Both the position numbers and the translations under genes were made by a program. Below are positions 1 to 9,349 of a DNA stretch of 64,000 nucleotides, in pieces; the stretch's first letter is position 1, and each line of letters starts with the position of its first letter. Below the pieces are notes generated by a model that worked only from the letters and a program-made list of their open reading frames with translations, searched no databases and was not told the DNA's origin. The stretch is from Candidatus Sumerlaeales bacterium (lineage in GTDB: Bacteria > Sumerlaeota > Sumerlaeia > Sumerlaeales > Sumerlaeaceae): positions 3,314-67,313 of the forward strand of contig JBBSQY010000012.1 of assembly GCA_038243585.1 (NCBI GenBank), in the 5' to 3' direction.

Positions 1-1803
1 TTCGGTAATATTATGCGCACCTGGCGTTGATGGACGATTTCCGCGTAACATAAGAATTGTGCCGCCGCGAGGTCTCATTGATATGTATCCGTCATTAAAT
101 GTGTTGTATGGATTTATAATACTTCCATTTTCTGGGCCGGTATATGTCGTATCTACATAAATACTGCCTAATGCCTCAATCGCCCGGCTAAGGTTGACTC
201 TACCAGTTGTTCGATTGGCTTTAGGATCATGAATACCGTCGGCAGTCTGCCTTAGGAGGGGTTCCAGTGTATGAGGCGCTCCGTATCGTCCGATTCTCAC
301 CCGTTCCGCATGTTGCAGGCACGCCGCCGCTCCTGCTACGTATGGGCATGCGGCGGAAGTTCCACCAAAATTGGTAACAAAATTTCCAGAATTATTTCCA
401 CCTGCACCTATCGTATCACATGTATACGCGTTGTTAGAAGAACCCAGCAAAGACAACTTAGGCGAGGAATTGGAATAAGCTGTCACTTTATCCATAATAG
501 CGTCCTCAAAGAAAGCGCGTCCGCTTCCACAACTCGAAGATACGTGGGAGAGGCAGGATCCGGAATTTACGCACCAACCAAGTGTTCCTAAATTTGCCTC
601 ATATACGGCACCAACCGCCACTACGTTTGCGTTGCAAGCGGGGCTTCCCATAGAATTACAGAATCCATCATTACCTGAAGATGCAAAAATAGTTATGTTG
701 GCGGCATTACAGGCCGCTGCTATAGCGGTGTAATTACCAGTGTTGCACGTATTAGTATAATTGCCGCCGCCAAAACTAGTACTGATAATCATAATCGGGT
801 TATTCGGGTCTTTCTGCTGGTTCCGAAGACACCAATCCCAAGCGGCTTCTATAGTACCGGCGGCGGAAGATTGATTGGGGTCCGAATTTTTAGTAAGTTT
901 TAAAGCGTAAATTCGTGCAGCGTGCGCAACCCCACCAATATAATCTCCCACCGAACCTTCAGGCGGAATATCCCCCGCTGCTATTCCGGCACATGCCGTG
1001 CCGTGGTTCGCGGAAGAATGGTCTGGAGGAAGTGGATTAGTGTCTCCATCCCCATAGTCGTACCCGCCAATTACCTTTCCATTAGGGAATCCGCCGTTTC
1101 CAAGGTTTGGGTGGCGGTAGTCGACCCCTGTGTCTACAATTGCTATTGCAAGCCCCGAGCCATTGAACTCAGATCGTGTTTGCCCCGCCTGAATCAAAGG
1201 TATGCCTTGCCTGGTGTGTGGGATGACAATTTCGTCTGGAGAAATTGCCACTACATCAGGATCATTTTGCAAGAGTTGCAGTCCTTCAAAAGTGACATCA
1301 GCCGAAAAGCCAGGCACTGTCGTATATTTATGCTTGACTTTAATGATACCTGATAAGTTTCGGGCCAGCGCTTGTTCAACCTTTGTTTCATTGGTTTGTA
1401 CCAATGATTTCACCGAAGCGGGTTCGGTGTACACTGTTGTCAATTGTTTCGATTCAAATGCGAGTCTCACGATTACGGCCGTTACGGAAGTGCCTTCGCT
1501 GAACGGTTCCAGTATTTCGACATCGCTGTAAAGCTTATTGATAGGTGGTGGTGGAATCTCCAAAAAGGCCTTGTTGGCGACTGGAATGGAAGTTAAATCA
1601 AGCTGGGATGGAAGCATCGGATTTTGTGCAAGTGCAGTGGTGGAATAATCAGCAAGCGAAAGCATTGGAATTTGTGTTAGTGTGGTAGTGGCCCCGCACA
1701 CCAGCGGTAGAAGGATAAGCCCAACTGTCAGGAGCGGACGGATTTTTGGGTGTTCGAGAGCCGCTTTGAAGGGATTACTCGCTAAAATTTTATATACTGT
1801 CAC
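1..1803 (-). CDS. S8 subtilisin-like serine protease with signal peptide and I9-like propeptide; the C-terminus runs off the left edge of the window
   Basis: It is absent from the ORF track because no stop lies in the window. Hand translation of the minus strand is open from GTG 1803..1801 to position 1. The catalytic triad motifs are present: IAIVDTGVDY (Asp, near 1134), NHGTACAGI (His, near 995) and GGTSAACPYVAGAAA (Ser, near 345). A hydrophobic leader (LLTVGLILLPLVCGA) is also present. The GTG overlaps the upstream stop as GTGA; the start choice is uncertain. Confidence 0.85.
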   Translation of the reverse strand, partial: MTVYKILASNPFKAALEHPKIRPLLTVGLILLPLVCGATTTLTQIPMLSLADYSTTALAQNPMLPSQLDLTSIPVANKAFLEIPPPPINKLYSDVEILEPFSEGTSVTAVIVRLAFESKQLTTVYTEPASVKSLVQTNETKVEQALARNLSGIIKVKHKYTTVPGFSADVTFEGLQLLQNDPDVVAISPDEIVIPHTRQGIPLIQAGQTRSEFNGSGLAIAIVDTGVDYRHPNLGNGGFPNGKVIGGYDYGDGDTNPLPPDHSSANHGTACAGIAAGDIPPEGSVGDYIGGVAHAARIYALKLTKNSDPNQSSAAGTIEAAWDWCLRNQQKDPNNPIMIISTSFGGGNYTNTCNTGNYTAIAAACNAANITIFASSGNDGFCNSMGSPACNANVVAVGAVYEANLGTLGWCVNSGSCLSHVSSSCGSGRAFFEDAIMDKVTAYSNSSPKLSLLGSSNNAYTCDTIGAGGNNSGNFVTNFGGTSAACPYVAGAAACLQHAERVRIGRYGAPHTLEPLLRQTADGIHDPKANRTTGRVNLSRAIEALGSIYVDTTYTGPENGSIINPYNTFNDGYISMRPRGGTILMLRGNRPSTPGAHNITE

Positions 1804-3137
1804 TGTAGGTTCACCAACACTAGGACTAGGCCTGTTCCTTCTTTAAGTTCTGTCATGGCTTTGCCGATGACTGCTCCGTGAGAAATTTCTGTGTCTGTCG
1901 CTTTCATGGCGTGACCGGCAGTGTTGGAGGTGGTAAGTAGATCGCCAGGCGCTATTGATCCATTTTCAGCACTTACCTTTGCGTACACCCGTCCGGCCAT
2001 GGCGATCAGGTTGTTGCCGTCGGCCACGCCGTCTTGAGTGAGCTTAAGGCCCGGCCGTACGCCGCCAGCGCCGCTGATGATGCCGGCGACTTTGCGGTCG
2101 TAGGCGGTGGCGCTGGGTTTTACGTTGCCGGGATTGGCTTCGTCGATCACCATAACCGTTCCTGGTTCGGCGGAGGAGCCGTCGGTCTGATCGAAGCCCT
2201 CGGCGACGTCCGCGCCGCGAACTTCGACTACGGAAGCAGAGAGACTGTGACTAAAATACGCACCACCTAAGGCACGCACATTAAACGTCCCGACTCCTCT
2301 TGAATGGAACTCTACATCATTCTCGGTGTCAACATATCCATTAAAAACGAAGGAGCCGGCATGGTCAGCTTTTGCTTTTCTTCCAGCAGCAAAGGACGCT
2401 ATTCCGCCGGCTCGATTAAACGCTCCGCCAGGAATAGTGGCTTGATAGCCATCGGCATTATTATCGGCTCCACCTCCTACAACTCCCGTAGTATTCGGCC
2501 CACTTCCAACATTATTAGAACTGCCACCACCAATTACACCTCGGTTGGTATAAACATGATTATCAACTCCACCCGCTATTACTGCCCCGAAGATATCTGG
2601 AGCAATCTGGTTGCTTGCCGCACCGCCAATAATATTAGGGCCTAATGGGTTACGCTCAATACGCAATCCTCCACTAAGCCCCTCGGCCATTACCGCCATG
2701 GGCACTGCCTGAACCTGCGTGTGGGGCAGTAGAACGTTGTCTTCTACGCCACCGGCGACGGAGAGGTAGACGGACATGCCCGCTGGTGCGTTGTAATCCG
2801 CCGGTTCCAAGGTCTGCCCGGCGGCGGGTGTGCCTGTGCCGACGGCGTGGTTGACTACTCCGTCGGGTGACAGGACAACTTCGGCAGTTTCGGCGTAGAC
2901 GATTGTGCCGGGGTCTGTGGGGGTGGTTTTGTGGAGTATCTTGAACCACATGGTTTGGTTGCCGGAAAGCGGCGCGCCGGTAGGGGTGAAGGCTTTGCCT
3001 TGGTAGTTGAAGGTTAAGGGGACGTCGGCAAATGCTGAAGGTGCGCCGAAGATTGTGGCGGCTAGAAGAGCATACATCGCCGGCCTTGCCATAATACCAG
3101 GCGCAAACGGCCTGGCGGAAATCATTAGTTGTGTCAT
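1800..3137 (-). CDS. Secreted modular fibre/adhesin-like protein, paralog A (conserved N module, Gly/Asn-rich variable centre, conserved C module)
   Basis: 445 aa ORF with a signal peptide (ALLAATIFGAPSAFA/DVPL). Its N and C modules are about 85-92% identical to those of the two upstream paralogs. The centre is rich in GG..N..G repeats. The start overlaps the upstream stop as ATGA. Confidence 0.8.
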   Translation of the reverse strand: MTQLMISARPFAPGIMARPAMYALLAATIFGAPSAFADVPLTFNYQGKAFTPTGAPLSGNQTMWFKILHKTTPTDPGTIVYAETAEVVLSPDGVVNHAVGTGTPAAGQTLEPADYNAPAGMSVYLSVAGGVEDNVLLPHTQVQAVPMAVMAEGLSGGLRIERNPLGPNIIGGAASNQIAPDIFGAVIAGGVDNHVYTNRGVIGGGSSNNVGSGPNTTGVVGGGADNNADGYQATIPGGAFNRAGGIASFAAGRKAKADHAGSFVFNGYVDTENDVEFHSRGVGTFNVRALGGAYFSHSLSASVVEVRGADVAEGFDQTDGSSAEPGTVMVIDEANPGNVKPSATAYDRKVAGIISGAGGVRPGLKLTQDGVADGNNLIAMAGRVYAKVSAENGSIAPGDLLTTSNTAGHAMKATDTEISHGAVIGKAMTELKEGTGLVLVLVNLQ

Positions 3138-4414
3138 TGCAGGTTCACCAGCACCAGGACGAGGCCTGTTCCTTCTTTGAGTTCTGTCATGGCTTTTCCT
3201 AAAATAACGCCGCGTTCCGGGCCGGTGTCGTCGGCGCGCATGGCGTGACCTGCGGTGTTGGATGTGGTGAGGAGATCGCCGGGAGTGATCACGCCGTTTT
3301 CGGCGCTGGCTTTGGCGTAAACGCGTCCGGCCATGGCGATTAGATTGTTACCGTCGGCCACGCCTTCCTGAGTTAGCTTGAGGCCGGGTCTCACGCCGCC
3401 CGCGCCGCTGATTACGCCGGCGACCTTGCGGTCGTAGGCGATGGCGCTGGGTTTTACGTCGCCGGGATTGGCTTCGTCGATGACCATTACAGTGCCGGGT
3501 TCGGCGGCGGAGCCGTCGGTCTGATCGAAGCCCTCGGCGACGTCCGCGCCACGGACTTCGATCAGACTGGCAGACAGCTTACCATTTCCTTGAACAGCAA
3601 CTTGGCCATTATTAAAAATTTCAAGACCTTGTGTGACATTTCCATTTTCATCTGTTACTGTCCCAAATCGAATACCACCGGGCGCTTTTACATTAAATGA
3701 ACCAGCAATCGGTGGCGGTTGGTAATAATCTTGGTTATCACTAATCCAACTGCTCCATACGAAACATCCATTGGCGTTGGGACTACTTGCGCGAAAACCA
3801 GCGGGAAGTGAATGGTTACCTGTCGCATTGTTGTAGGAGCCTCCTGGGACAAACGAAAAATTTCCTGATGCAATGTTTTGATTACCGCCTAGAGACGCGG
3901 AATAAGCGCCGGTTGCCTGATTATTAGTTCCCAATGCGAACTTTTCCCCACCCAAAGTTTTCGCTATAACCGCCATGGGCACTGCCTGAATCGGCGTATG
4001 GGGCAGCAGAACATTTTCTTCTATGCCTCCGGCGACAGAAAGGTGGATGGTTGTTCCTGTGGGGGCGTTAAAATCCGCCGTTTCCAGTGACTGCCCGGCG
4101 GCGGGTGTGCCTGTGCCGACGGCGTGGTTTACTACTCCGTCGGGTGACAGGACAACTTCGGCAGTTTCGGCGTAGACGACTATACCGACGTCGGTGGGGG
4201 TGGTCTTGTGGATTATCTTGAACCACATAGTTTGGTTTCCAGAAAGCGGTGCGCCGGTTGGGGTAAAGGCTTTGCCCTGGTAGTTAAAGGTCAGCGGGAC
4301 TTCGGCAAACGCGGAGGGTGCGCCGAAGATTGTGGCGGCTAGAAGGGCATACATCGCCGGCCTTGCCATAATATTTGGCGTGAACGGCTTGGCAGAAATC
4401 ATTAGTTGTTTCAT
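3134..4414 (-). CDS. Secreted modular fibre/adhesin-like protein, paralog B
   Basis: 426 aa ORF with the same leader and the same N and C modules as paralog A. The central segment is different (LGTNNQATGAYSASLGGNQNIASGNFSFVPGGSYNNATGN...). It has ATGA overlaps at both ends. Confidence 0.8.
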   Translation of the reverse strand: MKQLMISAKPFTPNIMARPAMYALLAATIFGAPSAFAEVPLTFNYQGKAFTPTGAPLSGNQTMWFKIIHKTTPTDVGIVVYAETAEVVLSPDGVVNHAVGTGTPAAGQSLETADFNAPTGTTIHLSVAGGIEENVLLPHTPIQAVPMAVIAKTLGGEKFALGTNNQATGAYSASLGGNQNIASGNFSFVPGGSYNNATGNHSLPAGFRASSPNANGCFVWSSWISDNQDYYQPPPIAGSFNVKAPGGIRFGTVTDENGNVTQGLEIFNNGQVAVQGNGKLSASLIEVRGADVAEGFDQTDGSAAEPGTVMVIDEANPGDVKPSAIAYDRKVAGVISGAGGVRPGLKLTQEGVADGNNLIAMAGRVYAKASAENGVITPGDLLTTSNTAGHAMRADDTGPERGVILGKAMTELKEGTGLVLVLVNLQ

Positions 4415-5859
4415 TGCAGGTTCACCAGTACCAGGACGAGGCCTGTTCCTTCTTTGAGTTCTGTCATAGCTTTGCCGATAACTGCGCCGTGGGAAATTTC
4501 TTTGTCGGAGGCTTTCATGGCGTGGCCGGGGGTGTCAGCGGTGGTTAAAAGATCGCCTGGGGTGACGGGGCCGTTTTCGGCACTGACCTTGGCGTATACC
4601 CGGCCGGCCATGGCGATCAGGTTGTTTCCGTCGGCCACGCCGTCTTGAGTGAGCTTGAGGCCCGGCCTTACGCCGCCCGCGCCGCTGATGATGCCGGCGA
4701 CTTTACAATCGTAGGCGGTTGCGCTGGGTTTGACGTCGCCGGGATTTGCTTCGTCTATCACCATAACCGTTCCAGGTTCGGCGGAGGAGCCGTCGGTCTG
4801 GTCGAAGCCCTCGGCGACATCCGCGCCGCGGACTTCTATTGTTTTTGCGGAGAGAAGATCAGATACAAAGACAGGGCCGTCAAATGATCCAGCTCTGAAA
4901 TCCGATCTTGCGTATATACCGACTGCACCATTAGTTCCAATGCCTACCACCCCTGCGTGATTTACAGCACTAGTGTATCCTCCAATTGCGTCATTGTTAG
5001 TGCTTTCGCTACGTATTTCAGGGGATTGTATAGAAGTAGCATAGATAGGCCCATCAAATGCACCAGCTCTTCCAGTATCGGATCTACCATAAATTCCCAC
5101 GCCACCGTTAGTACCTATGCCTGTTATGCCTGAGTGATTTGCAGTTGTACTGTATCCTGCAATTGAATCAGCGACTGGGCTACTTGCTCTTATTGTGCCC
5201 GCTGCCAAGCTATCCAACTTTAGACTGTTGGTTGTAATAGTAGTAGCCAGCACAGCCACGGGTACTGCGTGAATTTGCGTGTGAGGCAGCAGAACGTTTT
5301 CTTCTACACCTCCGGCGACGGAGAGGTGGATGGTTGTGCCTGCTGGGGCGTTATAGTCTGCCACTTCCAGTGTTTGTCCGGCGGCGGGTGTGCCTGTACC
5401 GACGGCGTGGTTGACTATTCCGTCGGGTGACAGGACAACTTCGGCGGTTTCGGCGTAGACGACTGTGCCGGCGTCTGTGGGAGTGGTTTTGTGGAGTATC
5501 TTGAACCACATGGTTTGGTTGCCGGACAGCGGCGCACCGGTGGGGGTGAAGGCTTTTCCCTGATAGTTGAAGGTGAGGGGGACGTCGGCGCGGACGGCGG
5601 TGGGAGCGAGAAGTAAAATGGAGGCGGCTGTTAAGTAATGTGTCGCCTGTATGACAGTGTAGCTCTTGGGAGCGCCGGCATCCCGTCGGCTTAGGCTCCG
5701 CATGACAGCCGCTCTGCTTGCGCCGGAGAGACTTGCGACTGGAATTTCATTCATTTTCGCGGTGTCTGACTGTGCGCCTGGGATTAGACCGCCGGGATGC
5801 CGGAGCTCCCAGGAAATGCCGCTGGCTTGGGTTTTTGTTGAACTTTTAAATGGTGTCAT
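4411..5859 (-). CDS. Secreted modular fibre/adhesin-like protein, paralog C (divergent leader, internally duplicated central cassette)
   Basis: 482 aa ORF. The conserved N module starts at aa 92 (DVPLTFNYQGK) and the C module ends LVLVLVNLQ. The ATG at 5859 sits at the same CAATGA junction as in paralogs A and B. Internal starts at 5754 or 5703 (MRSLSRR...LLLAPTAVRA) are also possible. Confidence 0.75.
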   Translation of the reverse strand: MTPFKSSTKTQASGISWELRHPGGLIPGAQSDTAKMNEIPVASLSGASRAAVMRSLSRRDAGAPKSYTVIQATHYLTAASILLLAPTAVRADVPLTFNYQGKAFTPTGAPLSGNQTMWFKILHKTTPTDAGTVVYAETAEVVLSPDGIVNHAVGTGTPAAGQTLEVADYNAPAGTTIHLSVAGGVEENVLLPHTQIHAVPVAVLATTITTNSLKLDSLAAGTIRASSPVADSIAGYSTTANHSGITGIGTNGGVGIYGRSDTGRAGAFDGPIYATSIQSPEIRSESTNNDAIGGYTSAVNHAGVVGIGTNGAVGIYARSDFRAGSFDGPVFVSDLLSAKTIEVRGADVAEGFDQTDGSSAEPGTVMVIDEANPGDVKPSATAYDCKVAGIISGAGGVRPGLKLTQDGVADGNNLIAMAGRVYAKVSAENGPVTPGDLLTTADTPGHAMKASDKEISHGAVIGKAMTELKEGTGLVLVLVNLQ

Positions 5860-6348: not shown

Positions 6349-6504
6349 GTTTTATTCCTGATGTGGAAAGTAGAAAACAACCGTCATTGGTTCGGACAGA
6401 CGGCCATTCGGAATTCTTCTTAGCGGGATATTTTTTGGTGGCAAGCACTATCTTCAGGATTATAGTGTTTTGGGTTATAACTGGCCAAAAACGCGAATAT
6501 CGAT

Positions 6505-6596
6505 CTATGGCACCCTTTTAGGATGGGGGTTAAGACCCAAGGGTGTCGCTTCGCTTCCTGACACTTGGATATCTTATATGCCCTTTCGGGGCGGGG
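6505..6596 (+). repeat. ~100 nt structured intergenic repeat (family R4), copy A
   Basis: ctatggcacccttttaggatggg..ggttaagacccaagggtgtcgcttcgcttcctgac...atgccctttcggggcgggg aligns by hand to 8815..8922 in the same orientation. It contains several short hairpins. Confidence 0.65.
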
Positions 6597-6745
6597 TTTT
6601 CTCAGCAATCGTCGCGGAGTTTGTTCGCAATGGTACCGGATTTGGATATTGGGCCAGGTTTCTGGTCTTTCTGGATGCGCTCCAGTCTGGTCTTCATTTC
6701 TTCGAGGAACTTATCATCTCCAGTTGGGTTAACGACAGCTTGCAA

Positions 6746-7744
6746 TCAGCATTTACTCCAGAAGAAATGCACCAGATTGTCAACTTGATCCACCCCCAGC
6801 TTCTCTGGAAAATAATTAATATAGCCACACAGTGCCGATGGCGTCAGGACTTTCGCATAGGATTTTGCGGGCTTAGGCGGCAGGCTGCTGCGGGTTGCGA
6901 TTATGGTGCGAAGTTTTGTTTCCATACCGGCTTCTTTGAGCATCCTGTAGCAGAGGTAAGAGGCGCGGGCTACCTGCTTGTAGGGGTCATGGAAGTTTCC
7001 GGAGTCGGTGAAGTTCCGGCTCCAGAGTTTTACCTCGATGAGGTATACCCCCGGCGGACCAACGACGACGTAGTCAATTTGTGCCGTCTTTAAATGCTCC
7101 CCTTCGTAGTACAGGTAGCGGTTGTATTCCAGTCGCACATCGGCCAGGACGGTGAAGGAATCTGGCAGAGATTCCAAGTGGCGAAGGACGTCGATTTCGG
7201 CAACAGCGCCGGCGTATTCTTTACTCTCTAAGGCTGCGGTCGCTCCATCTAGTTTTTTGCGGAAAGGTTGGCGGTAGGACTCCACAAGATGGTGTTGGCT
7301 GTTGATATGATTTTGGAGGATCGCTTCTGTATGGAGGGGTAGTTTTTCCAAGTCGATGGCGCGCCGGGCATGCTGCTTTTGCAGATAGAGGCGGCGCAGT
7401 TTCAAGGGTCCCCAGAGGAACCACCTCTGCATCTGGCGGGCTGTGGATATTTTACCTTCTGGACTAAGGCGCTGATCAAGCTCAGCAATGTCGTAGGTAT
7501 GTTTGGTTTGCAGAGCGGCCAGTGCGGTGACATACTCCGCACGCTTCAGCGACACCAGATCTGTCAGTTCCCGCGTGGTGAGATTGAAGGCGTCCAGAGC
7601 GTCGATTTCGCTTTGGTTCCAGTCCTTTTCCAGTTGCGGCACCAGTGCGCGTAAATCATCTGGGGTGTCGGGATATAAGCCTATACATTTTAGCGGGGTT
7701 TGTATGTCTGTCCAGGCTCCGCTCTTGCCGTATACCTGGGCCAT
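6746..7744 (-). CDS. NERD (nuclease-related domain) protein with a helical N-terminal region
   Basis: 332 aa ORF. The C-terminal half has the NERD-like core AQIDYVVVGPPGVYLIEVKLWSRNF, preceded by GAVAEIDVLRHLESLPDSFTVLADV. Confidence 0.7.
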   Translation of the reverse strand: MAQVYGKSGAWTDIQTPLKCIGLYPDTPDDLRALVPQLEKDWNQSEIDALDAFNLTTRELTDLVSLKRAEYVTALAALQTKHTYDIAELDQRLSPEGKISTARQMQRWFLWGPLKLRRLYLQKQHARRAIDLEKLPLHTEAILQNHINSQHHLVESYRQPFRKKLDGATAALESKEYAGAVAEIDVLRHLESLPDSFTVLADVRLEYNRYLYYEGEHLKTAQIDYVVVGPPGVYLIEVKLWSRNFTDSGNFHDPYKQVARASYLCYRMLKEAGMETKLRTIIATRSSLPPKPAKSYAKVLTPSALCGYINYFPEKLGVDQVDNLVHFFWSKC

Positions 7745-7802
7745 TTAAATGCTGCCTGTTTTATATAGGAATTTTACGAAGATGATGAGCCTCAATTGCA
7801 TG

Positions 7803-8519
7803 TTACAGGCTCAAATCCTTTGGCCACAGGAAGTATGGCCCGAACCTTTTAGAGTAGCGATATTCTCCGCCAGCGGCTTTGCCGGTCTCTGTGAGGGTGT
7901 GTTTGGCGGGTTCTCCTTCGAGAAATCCCTTCGCCAGCAGCTTTTCTATGAGTTCCTGAGTTTTACAACCCAGTTCTTTTGCAAGCCTGGACGTGGTGAG
8001 CTTTTCTGACTCTTCCTCTTCGGCGGCTATCAGGGCTGATTCATCGGGTTCTTTGGTCTTCTCAACAGTCTCGGCAGACAGACGAATCTCTTCGCTTACA
8101 CGGATCAGCCGCTGAGCCTCTTCATAGGTGTCTTTATACAGATCCGGCTCTTTGTCCCGCTCTACGAACACGCCCATTTCGTTGTTATTAACCTGGCTGA
8201 ATTCGTAGAGGTTCATGGAGGTGATAATTGCGGATGATTCGTTGAGGTAGCACTTTGCGTGAAGGTTCTGGCAGAAGCTGGTCCTGACAAAATCGAGGGA
8301 GCGAAGCCACTTTATCTCCTGGGGTTGCAGTTCGCTTTTGCCGAATACCACGCGGACGTCGATCTTGAGTCGGTTTTTATCCTCGAGGAGTTCTTTCATG
8401 CGGTCGTTGAACTTGAGGAACGGGCTGATGATGATCAACCGGTCTTTTGCGCCTTTGATGAGTTCTTCGAGGAAGTAGTTTGTCGCGCTGGTATTTAGGA
8501 ATTTAGCCATGGCGACCAT
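7803..8519 (-). CDS. Phospholipase D-family (HKD) nuclease-like protein with a C-terminal helix-turn-helix-like tail
   Basis: 238 aa ORF with a single HKD motif context (NLHAKCYLNESSAIITSMNLYEFSQVNNNEMGV). The layout is Nuc/restriction-endonuclease-like (DRLIIISPFL...). The C-terminal ~70 aa is basic/helical (TTSRLAKELGCKTQELIEKLLAKGF). Confidence 0.7.
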   Translation of the reverse strand: MVAMAKFLNTSATNYFLEELIKGAKDRLIIISPFLKFNDRMKELLEDKNRLKIDVRVVFGKSELQPQEIKWLRSLDFVRTSFCQNLHAKCYLNESSAIITSMNLYEFSQVNNNEMGVFVERDKEPDLYKDTYEEAQRLIRVSEEIRLSAETVEKTKEPDESALIAAEEEESEKLTTSRLAKELGCKTQELIEKLLAKGFLEGEPAKHTLTETGKAAGGEYRYSKRFGPYFLWPKDLSL

Positions 8520-8652
8520 GACATACGCCCGCTGTCAAAGGGATCAAGCTTTTTTGTTTGGTAAACGCTAGCGAAGTTAATGGGGAGATTGATGATAAAA
8601 TATGATTTCGGCTGATTCCGGATTTTCGTGGGGTGGTCGCTCCGCTTGGGTT

Positions 8653-8680
8653 AAGGCGGTGATGAATCACCGCACTCCAG
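8653..8680 (+). repeat. Short variant of hairpin repeat family R3 (GGCGGTGAT/ATCACCGC + ACTCCAG)
   Basis: aaggcggtgatgaatcaccgcactccag has the same terminal CCGCACTCCA motif as the copies at 5956 and 32717. Confidence 0.5.
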
Positions 8681-8814
8681 GATGTTGGTCTTGGTTGTTT
8701 GCGGGTATGTGGTAGGTGGTGGGACGGGGGTGGGTTTTGGGACTGGCGGGATTGCCTTTCGTCCTGACGCAGGCGGGGTGCTTATGCTCCTTATTTAATT
8801 TCAGAGCTTAAGTT

Positions 8815-8922
8815 CTATGCCACCCCTTCAGGGTGGGACTTGGGGTGGGGTTGAGACCCAGGGCTGCGTCGCTTTGCTCCTTACCCGGGGCTAACGTCTG
8901 GGACCACTCCGTGGTCGGGTGG
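8815..8922 (+). repeat. ~100 nt structured intergenic repeat (family R4), copy B
   Basis: ctatgccaccccttcagggtggg...ggggttgagacccagggctgcgtcgctttgctccttacccggggct...gggaccactccgtggtcgggtgg. Hairpins include CCACCC/GGGTGG and GACCAC/GTGGTC. It is a direct repeat of 6505..6596. Confidence 0.65.
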
Positions 8923-9072
8923 AAGTTATCTATTGTGCTTTGCGGGAAACCCCACACAGGAAATGAATTCATTCCTACATAGGAATGTTGGAATAATGGT
9001 GTAGGGCATAGCAAACACTTTTTGGCCGGCGGGATATGATGGCCAAAATTACTATTGTGGCCGGGAGTTGAG

Positions 9073-9327
9073 ATGGAAGATGATCGTAAGCAACAAATCA
9101 AAGATGCAAATACCATGCTTGGTGCTGGTGCGGGTCTGGCTACTTTCGGGGCGGGCAGTGCCATGTTGTTAGGGTCTGTCTGCCCGTTATGTATAATTGC
9201 TGCTCCTGTGCTGGTTGGCATTGGGGTGGTGGGCAGGATCAGGGCTGGTAAACAGCAAAAGGCAGTTGAGGGCGATAATGACTTAAGTGAGGAGCGAGCC
9301 GATGCCGTCAGTTACGAACCGAACTGA
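9073..9327 (+). CDS. Small hypothetical membrane protein with a CPLC motif
   Basis: The ORF-track ORF is 9055..9327, with an internal ATG at 9073 (MEDDRKQQ...). A Gly/Ala-rich hydrophobic stretch contains CPLC. No family was recognised, and coding status is uncertain. Confidence 0.3.
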   Translation: MEDDRKQQIKDANTMLGAGAGLATFGAGSAMLLGSVCPLCIIAAPVLVGIGVVGRIRAGKQQKAVEGDNDLSEERADAVSYEPN

Positions 9328-9349
9328 ATCAGTTACAAACCGAACTGAA
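9308..9349. repeat. Tandem direct repeat, 2 x 21 nt
   Basis: tcagttacgaaccgaactgaa / tcagttacaaaccgaactgaa are 20/21 identical and directly adjacent. Confidence 0.8.

Follow-up and report, generated by a model that had tools for sequence, protein, structure and literature searches.

Within a 64,000-nucleotide (nt) stretch of DNA from a Candidatus Sumerlaeales bacterium (contig JBBSQY010000012.1, positions 3,314 to 67,313; hereafter the window, whose coordinates are used throughout unless a locus is named), two neighboring genes on the minus strand encode a phospholipase D (PLD)-family protein with a C-terminal winged-helix (wH)-like tail, here called PLD-wH, and, downstream of it, a coiled-coil protein with a NERD nuclease domain. 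With confidence and doubt about evenly balanced, we read the core of this locus as an autonomous, mobile, restriction-like PLD-wH DNA nuclease for which the NERD protein is an optional companion, the two making up a dual-nuclease islet for defense or for the exclusion of mobile genetic elements (MGEs) and not an obligate system. In kind, it would be a restriction-like nuclease with a DNA-reader domain and an optional companion nuclease. An earlier sequence-only reading of this stretch had proposed two co-oriented open reading frames (ORFs), 58 nt apart, with nuclease motifs in both products. Both ORFs are present on the minus strand, one of 332 aa at 6746-7744 and one of 238 aa at 7803-8519, and the quoted motifs are there, with the catalytic residues invariant in family alignments.

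The PLD-wH gene (7803..8519, minus strand) was assigned from its ORF, its Pfam and PHROG matches, and its homologues to a Nuc-like single-HKD nuclease followed by an acidic linker and the winged-helix tail. In support of the previous assignment to single-HKD PLD-family nucleases, residues 18-128 match Pfam PLDc_2 with an E value of 7e-9 and 36.0 bits against a cut-off of 27. The PLD/Nuc-like catalytic domain (residues 1-150; 8070..8519), delimited by alignments and Foldseek, carries the motif H87-x-K89-x4-E94 ... S101-x-N103, and H87, K89, E94, S101, and N103 are invariant in alignments of 36 and 42 sequences. In a structure model with an overall predicted local distance difference test (pLDDT) score of 76, a Nuc/NucT/Zucchini-like domain is followed by an acidic linker, which is disordered, and by a tail that is confidently modeled as winged-helix-like. 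The variable linker (residues ~151-172; 8004..8069) was defined by pLDDT and alignment; pLDDT falls below 50 at residues 153-170, and both length and sequence vary in the alignment. Behind it, what had been described as a helix-turn-helix-like tail is modeled as a winged-helix-like domain at residues 173-233, and the tail as a whole (residues 173-238; 7806..8003), located by the model and by profile matches, has the conserved pattern KLT...G-x3-GG-E...GPYFLWP.

Searches with Foldseek returned NucT (6ehi), Nuc (1byr), and Zucchini (4ggj) at E values of ~3e-5 and target TM-scores of 0.58-0.65, and SauUSI (7clg) was also among the matches. Over its full length the protein matches PHROG 9329 (E = 3e-107). 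Its N terminus has a conserved MAKFLNTS start that looks cytoplasmic, as judged by eye from the sequence. The ratio of nonsynonymous to synonymous substitution rates (dN/dS) for PLD-wH is 0.02-0.10 with saturated synonymous sites, indicating strong constraint; for the NERD gene, it is 0.18-0.24. From its motifs and family alignments, PLD-wH is predicted to be an active nuclease.

The coiled-coil NERD gene (6746..7744, minus strand) was assigned from its ORF, Pfam match, and structure model. The NERD core that had been recognized earlier matches Pfam NERD (PF08378) at residues 179-282 with an E value of 1.9e-13 and 51.3 bits, against a cut-off of 22.1. As placed by alignment and Foldseek, the PD-(D/E)xK core occupies residues 196-332 (6749..7159) and includes D224, E237, and K239, which are invariant in 11 sequences. 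The N-terminal region (residues 1-195; 7160..7744), defined by alignment and model, begins with MAxxxGxSGAW; its helical character, also noted before, is borne out by a confident antiparallel hairpin of helices 28-93 and 101-148 (pLDDT 91), with two more helices, in a model whose overall pLDDT is 91.2. The best Foldseek matches of the core are Bax1 (6p4o, E = 3e-4) and Can2, while the N-terminal arm matches the coiled-coil arms of SMC/Rad50. The window protein has no DNA-targeting domain of its own, no zinc ribbon, and no transmembrane segments. Its subfamily is rare, with 11 members among 5.8 billion proteins, and searches of plasmids and of viral contigs turned up none. By the same kind of evidence as for PLD-wH, the NERD protein is predicted to be an active nuclease.

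The PLD-wH family is large and widespread. It forms more than 7,400 clusters, a count that is a lower bound, at 60-89% identity across many phyla, among them Proteobacteria, Cyanobacteria, Planctomycetota, Chloroflexota, Actinomycetota, Hydrogenedentota, and Sumerlaeota. Members were found on 620 plasmid records, 576 of them conjugative, and IncHI plasmids of Escherichia coli, Klebsiella, and Salmonella carry PLD-wH near psiA, DUF1173, a Dcm methyltransferase gene, and H-NS. Seven Vibrio inoviruses have the gene in their accessory region, next to a putative AbiC gene. Among viral contigs in IMG/VR, 63 have PLD-wH, most of them of inovirus size, and in 62 of the 63, PLD-wH has no neighbor with a NERD/Mrr motif. 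The sole contig with an Mrr-motif ORF beside PLD is L164 (3209-3973), where that ORF lies 27 nt upstream in the same orientation. Known defense genes also occur around the family. Neighbors of PLD match models of PbeA, MADS, SoFic, HNH, and Type IV restriction endonucleases (REases), and a type II cyclic-oligonucleotide-based antiphage signaling system (CBASS) adjoins PLD in loci L102 and L103 and lies nearby in L003. The CBASS genes, at 6266-10580 in L102, 1508-5822 in L103, and 1-3155 in L003, are beside PLD or within two genes of it; all three loci have CD-NTase, E1/E2, and JAB genes, and L102 and L103 additionally have a patatin effector gene.

An exhaustive search with residues 165-238 retrieved the tail in 386 representative clusters, with a model secondary structure of E-H-H-E-E-H-E-E. 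In PLD proteins it is C-terminal and present in one to three copies. It was also found at the C terminus of NERD proteins P0277, P0286, and P0355, on a DUF2726 nuclease encoded by a Vibrio plasmid, and, duplicated, at the N terminus of PDC-S69-like proteins that have an unrelated C-terminal domain; the tail aligns with positions 4-68 of 289 of the PADLOC model PDC-S69 (E = 9e-16). Matches to Pfam were weak (KilAC/ANT, AprA-WH [WH_AprA], and HemN_C), as were those of the tail profile to Protein Data Bank (PDB) sequences, which were solely of the DtxR/MarR-type winged helix-turn-helix. Judging by the proteins in which it recurs, the tail behaves like a transferable unit with which DNA-damaging effectors would bind or sense DNA; its attachment to NERD, DUF2726, and DarT effectors as well as to PLD is what suggests a reusable targeting or sensing module. 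The DarT protein concerned, P0301 (646 aa), is a single-stranded DNA (ssDNA) thymidine ADP-ribosyltransferase with four copies of the tail. A PLD-wH protein from a Chloroflexota metagenome-assembled genome (MAG), L032 6001-6942, has two tails in tandem, and their near identity indicates recent internal duplication.

We then considered the adjacency of PLD-wH to other nucleases in 80 genome loci, with a Pfam scan of 139 immediate neighbors and a motif count over ~150 adjacent genes. One of the loci, L091, is identical to window positions 6518-8677 and therefore adds no independent evidence, and the absence of NERD as read from gene calls in other loci may hide pseudogenes. PLD lies directly beside a NERD or Mrr-type nuclease in ~20% of the 80 genomes. 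By motif, the NERD/Mrr signature was present in 18 of ~150 adjacent genes versus 0 of 518 other genes within ±6 kb (Fisher P = 9e-13), so that the co-occurrence statistics proposed earlier as a check did reveal enrichment. The only recurrent immediate neighbors of PLD in the Pfam scan were PD-(D/E)xK nucleases, Mrr_cat in 10 cases and NERD in 7. These partners often carry a topoisomerase-type zinc ribbon, which was detected in 9 of the 139 immediate neighbors. Co-oriented PLD and partner genes are separated by gaps of 6-9 nt in L042, L045, L070, and L080. The adjacency of homologues in other genomes, likewise proposed as a check, was also found: the same NERD subfamily lies beside PLD in three related contigs, and on the Acidovorax plasmid pAOVO01 a different NERD gene (207 aa) starts 17 nt after PLD. 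The adjacency statistics favor a functional link between PLD and its partner nuclease. In the PLD tree, PLDs with a partner occur at scattered positions, those with NERD intermingle with those with Mrr, and very close PLDs differ in having a partner; this distribution indicates that the association forms and dissolves repeatedly. On IncHI plasmids of E. coli and Klebsiella, a gene of the thermonuclease family precedes PLD-wH (40-43% identical; L088 3507-4022 and L089 4396-4890), making thermonuclease a third kind of nuclease neighbor besides NERD and Mrr.

In the clade of the window itself, the pair is ancestral and co-inherited. The closest named relative of the gene pair is a Candidatus Sumerlaeota MAG, and in its loci L001/L005, as in L002 and L003, the coiled-coil NERD gene stands beside PLD in divergent orientation, ~220-240 bp apart. 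Compared to those relatives, DNA alignment shows that the PLD gene of the window has been inverted, giving the tandem order of PLD and then NERD. Synonymous divergence (dS) between L005 and L003 is 0.62 for PLD and 0.48 for NERD, and L102 and L005 are separated by very recent divergence (PLD dS of 0.17). In L004, a DUF6602 gene takes the place of NERD. Just beyond the NERD stop codon in L005 (4507-4679) and L002 (675-847) lies a fragment of PLD corresponding to residues 58-88 and 97% identical to the window PLD. Fragment and intact PLD are on the same strand and form direct repeats flanking NERD, and such repeats could mediate deletion of NERD.

Several observations weigh against our reading of the locus as a restriction-like nuclease with a companion. 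NERD pseudogenes were detected by tblastn in the ancestral divergent position beside intact PLD in L100/L101 and L102; their lesions include multiple frameshifts, in-frame stops, and, in L102, one deletion. The loci of P0014 and P0016 appear from gene calls to have PLD without NERD, yet by tblastn they contain a decayed NERD. In this clade, PLD can thus be retained without NERD. Some 80% of PLD-wH genes have no nuclease partner, which means that cooperation with a second nuclease is not required, and in the contigs examined for P0007 and P0008, two distant relatives of the NERD protein, no PLD neighbor was found. The side and orientation of the partner vary (upstream, downstream, or divergent), which fits loose or tight coupling alike. 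DpnI was not retrieved when the tail profile was run at the sequence level against all PDB sequences (E ≤ 10), and the annotation of PHROG 9329 is "unknown function." The company of PLD-wH among leading-region-type genes on IncHI plasmids would fit a role in plasmid establishment too, and sequence conservation as high as that of PLD-wH is, to our knowledge, unusual among defense genes. As for the two-gene module originally proposed, the pairing does recur beyond the window, but an obligate unit is not borne out, with ~80% of PLD genes alone, NERD pseudogenes, and lone NERD relatives; obligate dependence is ruled out because the partner is often absent or decayed. The pseudogenes, at 1138-2137 in L100, 449-1436 in L101, and 3987-4759 in L102, had been given by gene callers as small ORFs only.

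The mechanism that we propose for the restriction-like PLD-wH nuclease would run as follows. By analogy with Nuc, BfiI, and Zucchini, two PLD-wH monomers would each contribute an HKD half-site to a joint active site that needs no metal, and cleavage would pass through a phosphohistidine intermediate. The flexible acidic linker may tether two winged-helix tails that would pick the DNA substrate, probably a feature of incoming foreign DNA, e.g., a modification or a structure. NERD, with its PD-(D/E)xK domain borne on a coiled-coil arm, would be a second nuclease that depends on Mg, serving as a back-up or cooperating effector that would have been repeatedly gained beside PLD-wH genes and could easily be lost. 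We infer nuclease activity, dimerization, the DNA target, the defense role, and PLD-NERD cooperation, and for the pair it is the context from which the defense role is drawn.

Other accounts of the locus differ in how closely they tie the two nucleases together. It is possible, if somewhat doubtful, that they are independent enzymes without interaction, made neighbors only by the pile-up of small defense and MGE cargo at variable spots. Each does occur alone elsewhere, the type, side, and orientation of the partner vary, the surroundings are those of a defense island, and Mrr-type partners match the PADLOC PDC-S02 model, in which "S" presumably denotes a single-gene candidate, and Type IV REase models. 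Mere pile-up is at odds, however, with an enrichment that is limited to the directly adjacent gene and is absent from the other genes within ±6 kb (18/~150 versus 0/518; P = 9e-13), with gaps of 6-17 nt that imply shared transcripts in at least five lineages, and with recurrent neighbors that are PD-(D/E)xK nucleases only and not other defense genes. An obligate two-component complex, in which the winged-helix tail senses DNA and recruits or activates NERD as effector (or the roles are swapped) and neither works alone, would suit a pair that was kept through the PLD inversion, that has the same NERD subfamily beside PLD in all members of ≥50% identity with visible flanks, and whose NERD protein has no targeting domain of its own; the tight operons with other NERD/Mrr genes in other lineages point the same way. 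We nevertheless find such a complex quite improbable, given that ~80% of genomes and all but one of the 63 viral contigs have PLD alone, that NERD has been pseudogenized twice while PLD stayed intact under strong purifying selection, and that PLD is missing beside the NERD relatives P0007 and P0008. Unlikely, in our estimate, is a further proposal, that PLD-wH with an adjacent NERD/Mrr nuclease constitutes an undescribed modular two-nuclease restriction system. Here, the tail would recognize a generic feature of incoming DNA (e.g., ssDNA from conjugation or inovirus infection, or base modification) and license both the metal-independent HKD cut and the Mg-dependent PD-(D/E)xK cut, and it would also be a portable sensor for NERD, DUF2726, and DarT effectors.

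Two further alternatives concern what PLD-wH is for. It might be an establishment or competition factor of MGEs and not a host defense gene, aiding entry, excluding rivals, or countering restriction, with chromosomal copies such as that of the window being remnants of integrated elements. The 576 conjugative plasmids that carry PLD-wH, its place on IncHI plasmids beside a thermonuclease gene and near psiA, DUF1173, the Dcm methyltransferase gene, and H-NS, its presence as inovirus cargo, and, in the window, a bracketed segment of mildly atypical composition flanked by direct repeats are all in keeping with this. The many chromosomal copies in defense islands beside CBASS and Type IV REases are not, nor is the lack of integrase, transfer, and phage genes in ~1-15 kb and of tRNA genes in the window, and we give this account very little credence as a separate explanation. 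Since MGE-borne defense genes are common, it overlaps heavily with the restriction-like nuclease that we favor. That PLD-wH is instead a DNA repair enzyme, e.g., a Tdp1-like HKD phosphodiesterase removing protein-DNA adducts, is scarcely credible. In its favor, some UniRef and GenBank records are annotated as "DNA repair protein," a topoisomerase-type zinc ribbon is present in 9 of 139 immediate neighbors, and Tdp1 is a member of the HKD superfamily. Against it, the literature searched offered no experiment to which that annotation could be traced; PLD-wH is patchy and MGE-borne, unlike a core gene; and it has a single HKD unit like Nuc in place of the two-HKN architecture of Tdp1, with Nuc, NucT, and Zucchini as its closest folds.

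The earlier remark of knowing no named system with this exact pairing agrees with a PADLOC run: PADLOC-DB v2 and NCBIfam place neither protein in one, and literature searches gave no description of a PLD-wH and NERD pairing. The window NERD protein had no match in PADLOC-DB v2, while PLD had sub-threshold, domain-level matches to DrmC, MkoB, DpdK, and MADS6 in PADLOC-DB v2 and NCBIfam. Membership in DISARM, Mokosh, MADS, Dpd, or PDC-S69 was rejected, all matches being at the domain level and far below the cut-offs. In the case of DISARM DrmC, the NCBIfam model DISARM_DrmC_I scored 31.8 bits against a cut-off of 133, and no helicase, DUF1998, or methyltransferase gene is nearby; in that of Mokosh type I, there is no adjacent helicase ORF, and the MkoB match covers the PLD domain only, at 26 bits. 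The PDC-S69 alignment is confined to the tail, at model positions 4-68 of 289, and does not extend to a full-length match.

The closest described class, as judged from its published description, is that of the PLD-wH Type IV restriction candidates Aba4572I and CbaI. These PLD-wH fusion endonucleases were proposed to be Dam N6-methyladenine (6mA)-dependent Type IV restriction enzymes from toxicity in E. coli, in unpurified form, and only 27 PLD-wH members, found by homology to the DpnI winged-helix domain, were described; CbaI was reported next to a "restriction endonuclease" gene (PMC11037411). As in Aba4572I and CbaI, one chain begins with a PLD nuclease and ends with a winged helix, and, as with CbaI, many members of the window PLD family have a nuclease gene as neighbor. 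The window family differs in size, with more than 7,400 clusters versus 27, and in a tail without detectable DpnI homology. Identity with CbaI or Aba4572I was considered and not adopted: the paper and its supplements contain no sequences, and the Chloroflexota locus L032 does not have the CbaI neighborhood.

With Nuc (pKM101/Salmonella), NucT, and Zucchini, the window PLD shares the fold and the HxK...SxN half-site, and Nuc is also plasmid-borne; by analogy, this half-site and Nuc-like fold would imply a homodimeric, metal-independent nuclease. It differs from them in its winged-helix tail and acidic linker, and identity is only 10-18%. In BfiI and SauUSI, too, a PLD catalytic domain is tethered to a DNA-reading domain, but this is a B3-like domain in BfiI and an SRA-like reader, together with a helicase, in SauUSI; unlike the window PLD, both lack the winged-helix tail and a PD-(D/E)xK partner. 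Mokosh type I resembles the window pair in combining NERD and PLD domains, in the MkoA helicase with a NERD domain and the MkoB PLD nuclease, but its centerpiece is a COG1112 RNA helicase, whereas the window has no helicase or ATPase. The commonest partners of PLD-wH elsewhere, Mrr-like Type IV enzymes/PADLOC PDC-S02, are PD-(D/E)xK nucleases like the window NERD, which in contrast is a coiled-coil protein without zinc ribbon, transmembrane segments, or PADLOC match.

PLD-wH is among the more abundant and best-conserved families still labeled "unknown function" on conjugative resistance plasmids, namely IncHI in E. coli, Klebsiella, and Salmonella, as well as on Vibrio filamentous phages and in defense islands. 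Should PLD-wH prove to be a nuclease of restriction-like type, it would influence the traffic of plasmids and phages in bacteria of clinical relevance. Its tail, which NERD, DUF2726, and DarT effectors also have, would merit characterization as a reusable module for sensing DNA, and the optional yet statistically specific pairing offers a tractable case of accessory effectors recruited to, or lost from, a core immune gene.

Within the window, the spacer from the PLD stop to the NERD start (7745..7802, minus strand) is 58 nt long, and a terminator scan found no terminator-like site in it on the coding strand; cotranscription of PLD and NERD is accordingly plausible and probably occurs. Upstream of PLD lies a non-coding stretch (8520..8812, minus strand), presumed to be the promoter region, with no convincing sigma-70 match. 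An imperfect direct repeat brackets the pair on the plus strand, as located by local alignment. The repeats of ~100 nt described in the sequence-only reading are real and in the same orientation but shorter, with a left copy of 60 nt (6503..6562) and a right copy of 72 nt (8813..8884) that has insertions of 11 nt and 2 nt. The copies are ~83% identical, with these 11-nt and 2-nt indels, their alignment score is 45 compared to 23 ± 2.5 (maximum 35) for shuffles, and they are the only two in the 64-kb window. The description of the repeats as structured did not hold, with DNA folding z scores of -0.65 to -1.07 on both strands and predicted structures that differ between the copies. The repeat had no match in Rfam and was not found in 90 collected loci or in the metagenome collection. 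Bracketing by structured repeats adds little to our reading, because the repeats are short, unstructured, and private to the genome of the window. We rejected an integron attC site, a miniature inverted-repeat transposable element, and a small RNA on the grounds of no significant fold, no Rfam match, two copies only, and absence elsewhere; a coding remnant was judged unconvincing by inspection, as the copies translate in frame over the last ~7 codons only.

The bracketed 2.4 kb is mildly atypical, with a tetranucleotide distance in the top 6%, and its description as slightly AT-richer holds weakly, at 51.4% GC (8th percentile) versus a window value of 54.3%. Inspection of ~1-15 kb of the window showed no genes for integrase, transfer, or phage functions, and its 64 kb contain no tRNA genes; consistent with what had been stated, no methyltransferase, helicase, or ATPase partner gene is nearby. 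The flanks had been described as an accessory surface-protein locus and a sulfur operon. On the right are an ArsR regulator and a sulfur-detoxification operon, and the gene of the right flank has its closest relative in P0139 (88% identity), upstream of which, on short contigs, other genes are found. On the left are three paralogous genes, none of which (0/3) has a Pfam match, at 1800-3137, 3134-4414, and 4411-5859 on the minus strand, in tandem with 4-nt overlaps. The translations of 3134-4414 and 4411-5859 share the N-terminal block VPLTFNYQGKAFTPTGAPLSGNQTMWFKI and have near-identical C termini of ~130 aa ending in GTGLVLVLVNLQ. The 5' part of the gene at 4411-5859 contains a 26-nt inverted repeat (5664-5689 and 5789-5814) with 88% complementarity and arms 99 nt apart. 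Between the gene pair and the ArsR gene, the interval 9055-9349 contains a 90-aa hydrophobic ORF with a CPLC motif and, at and just past the 3' end of that ORF, a near-perfect 21-nt tandem repeat (9308-9328 and 9329-9349).

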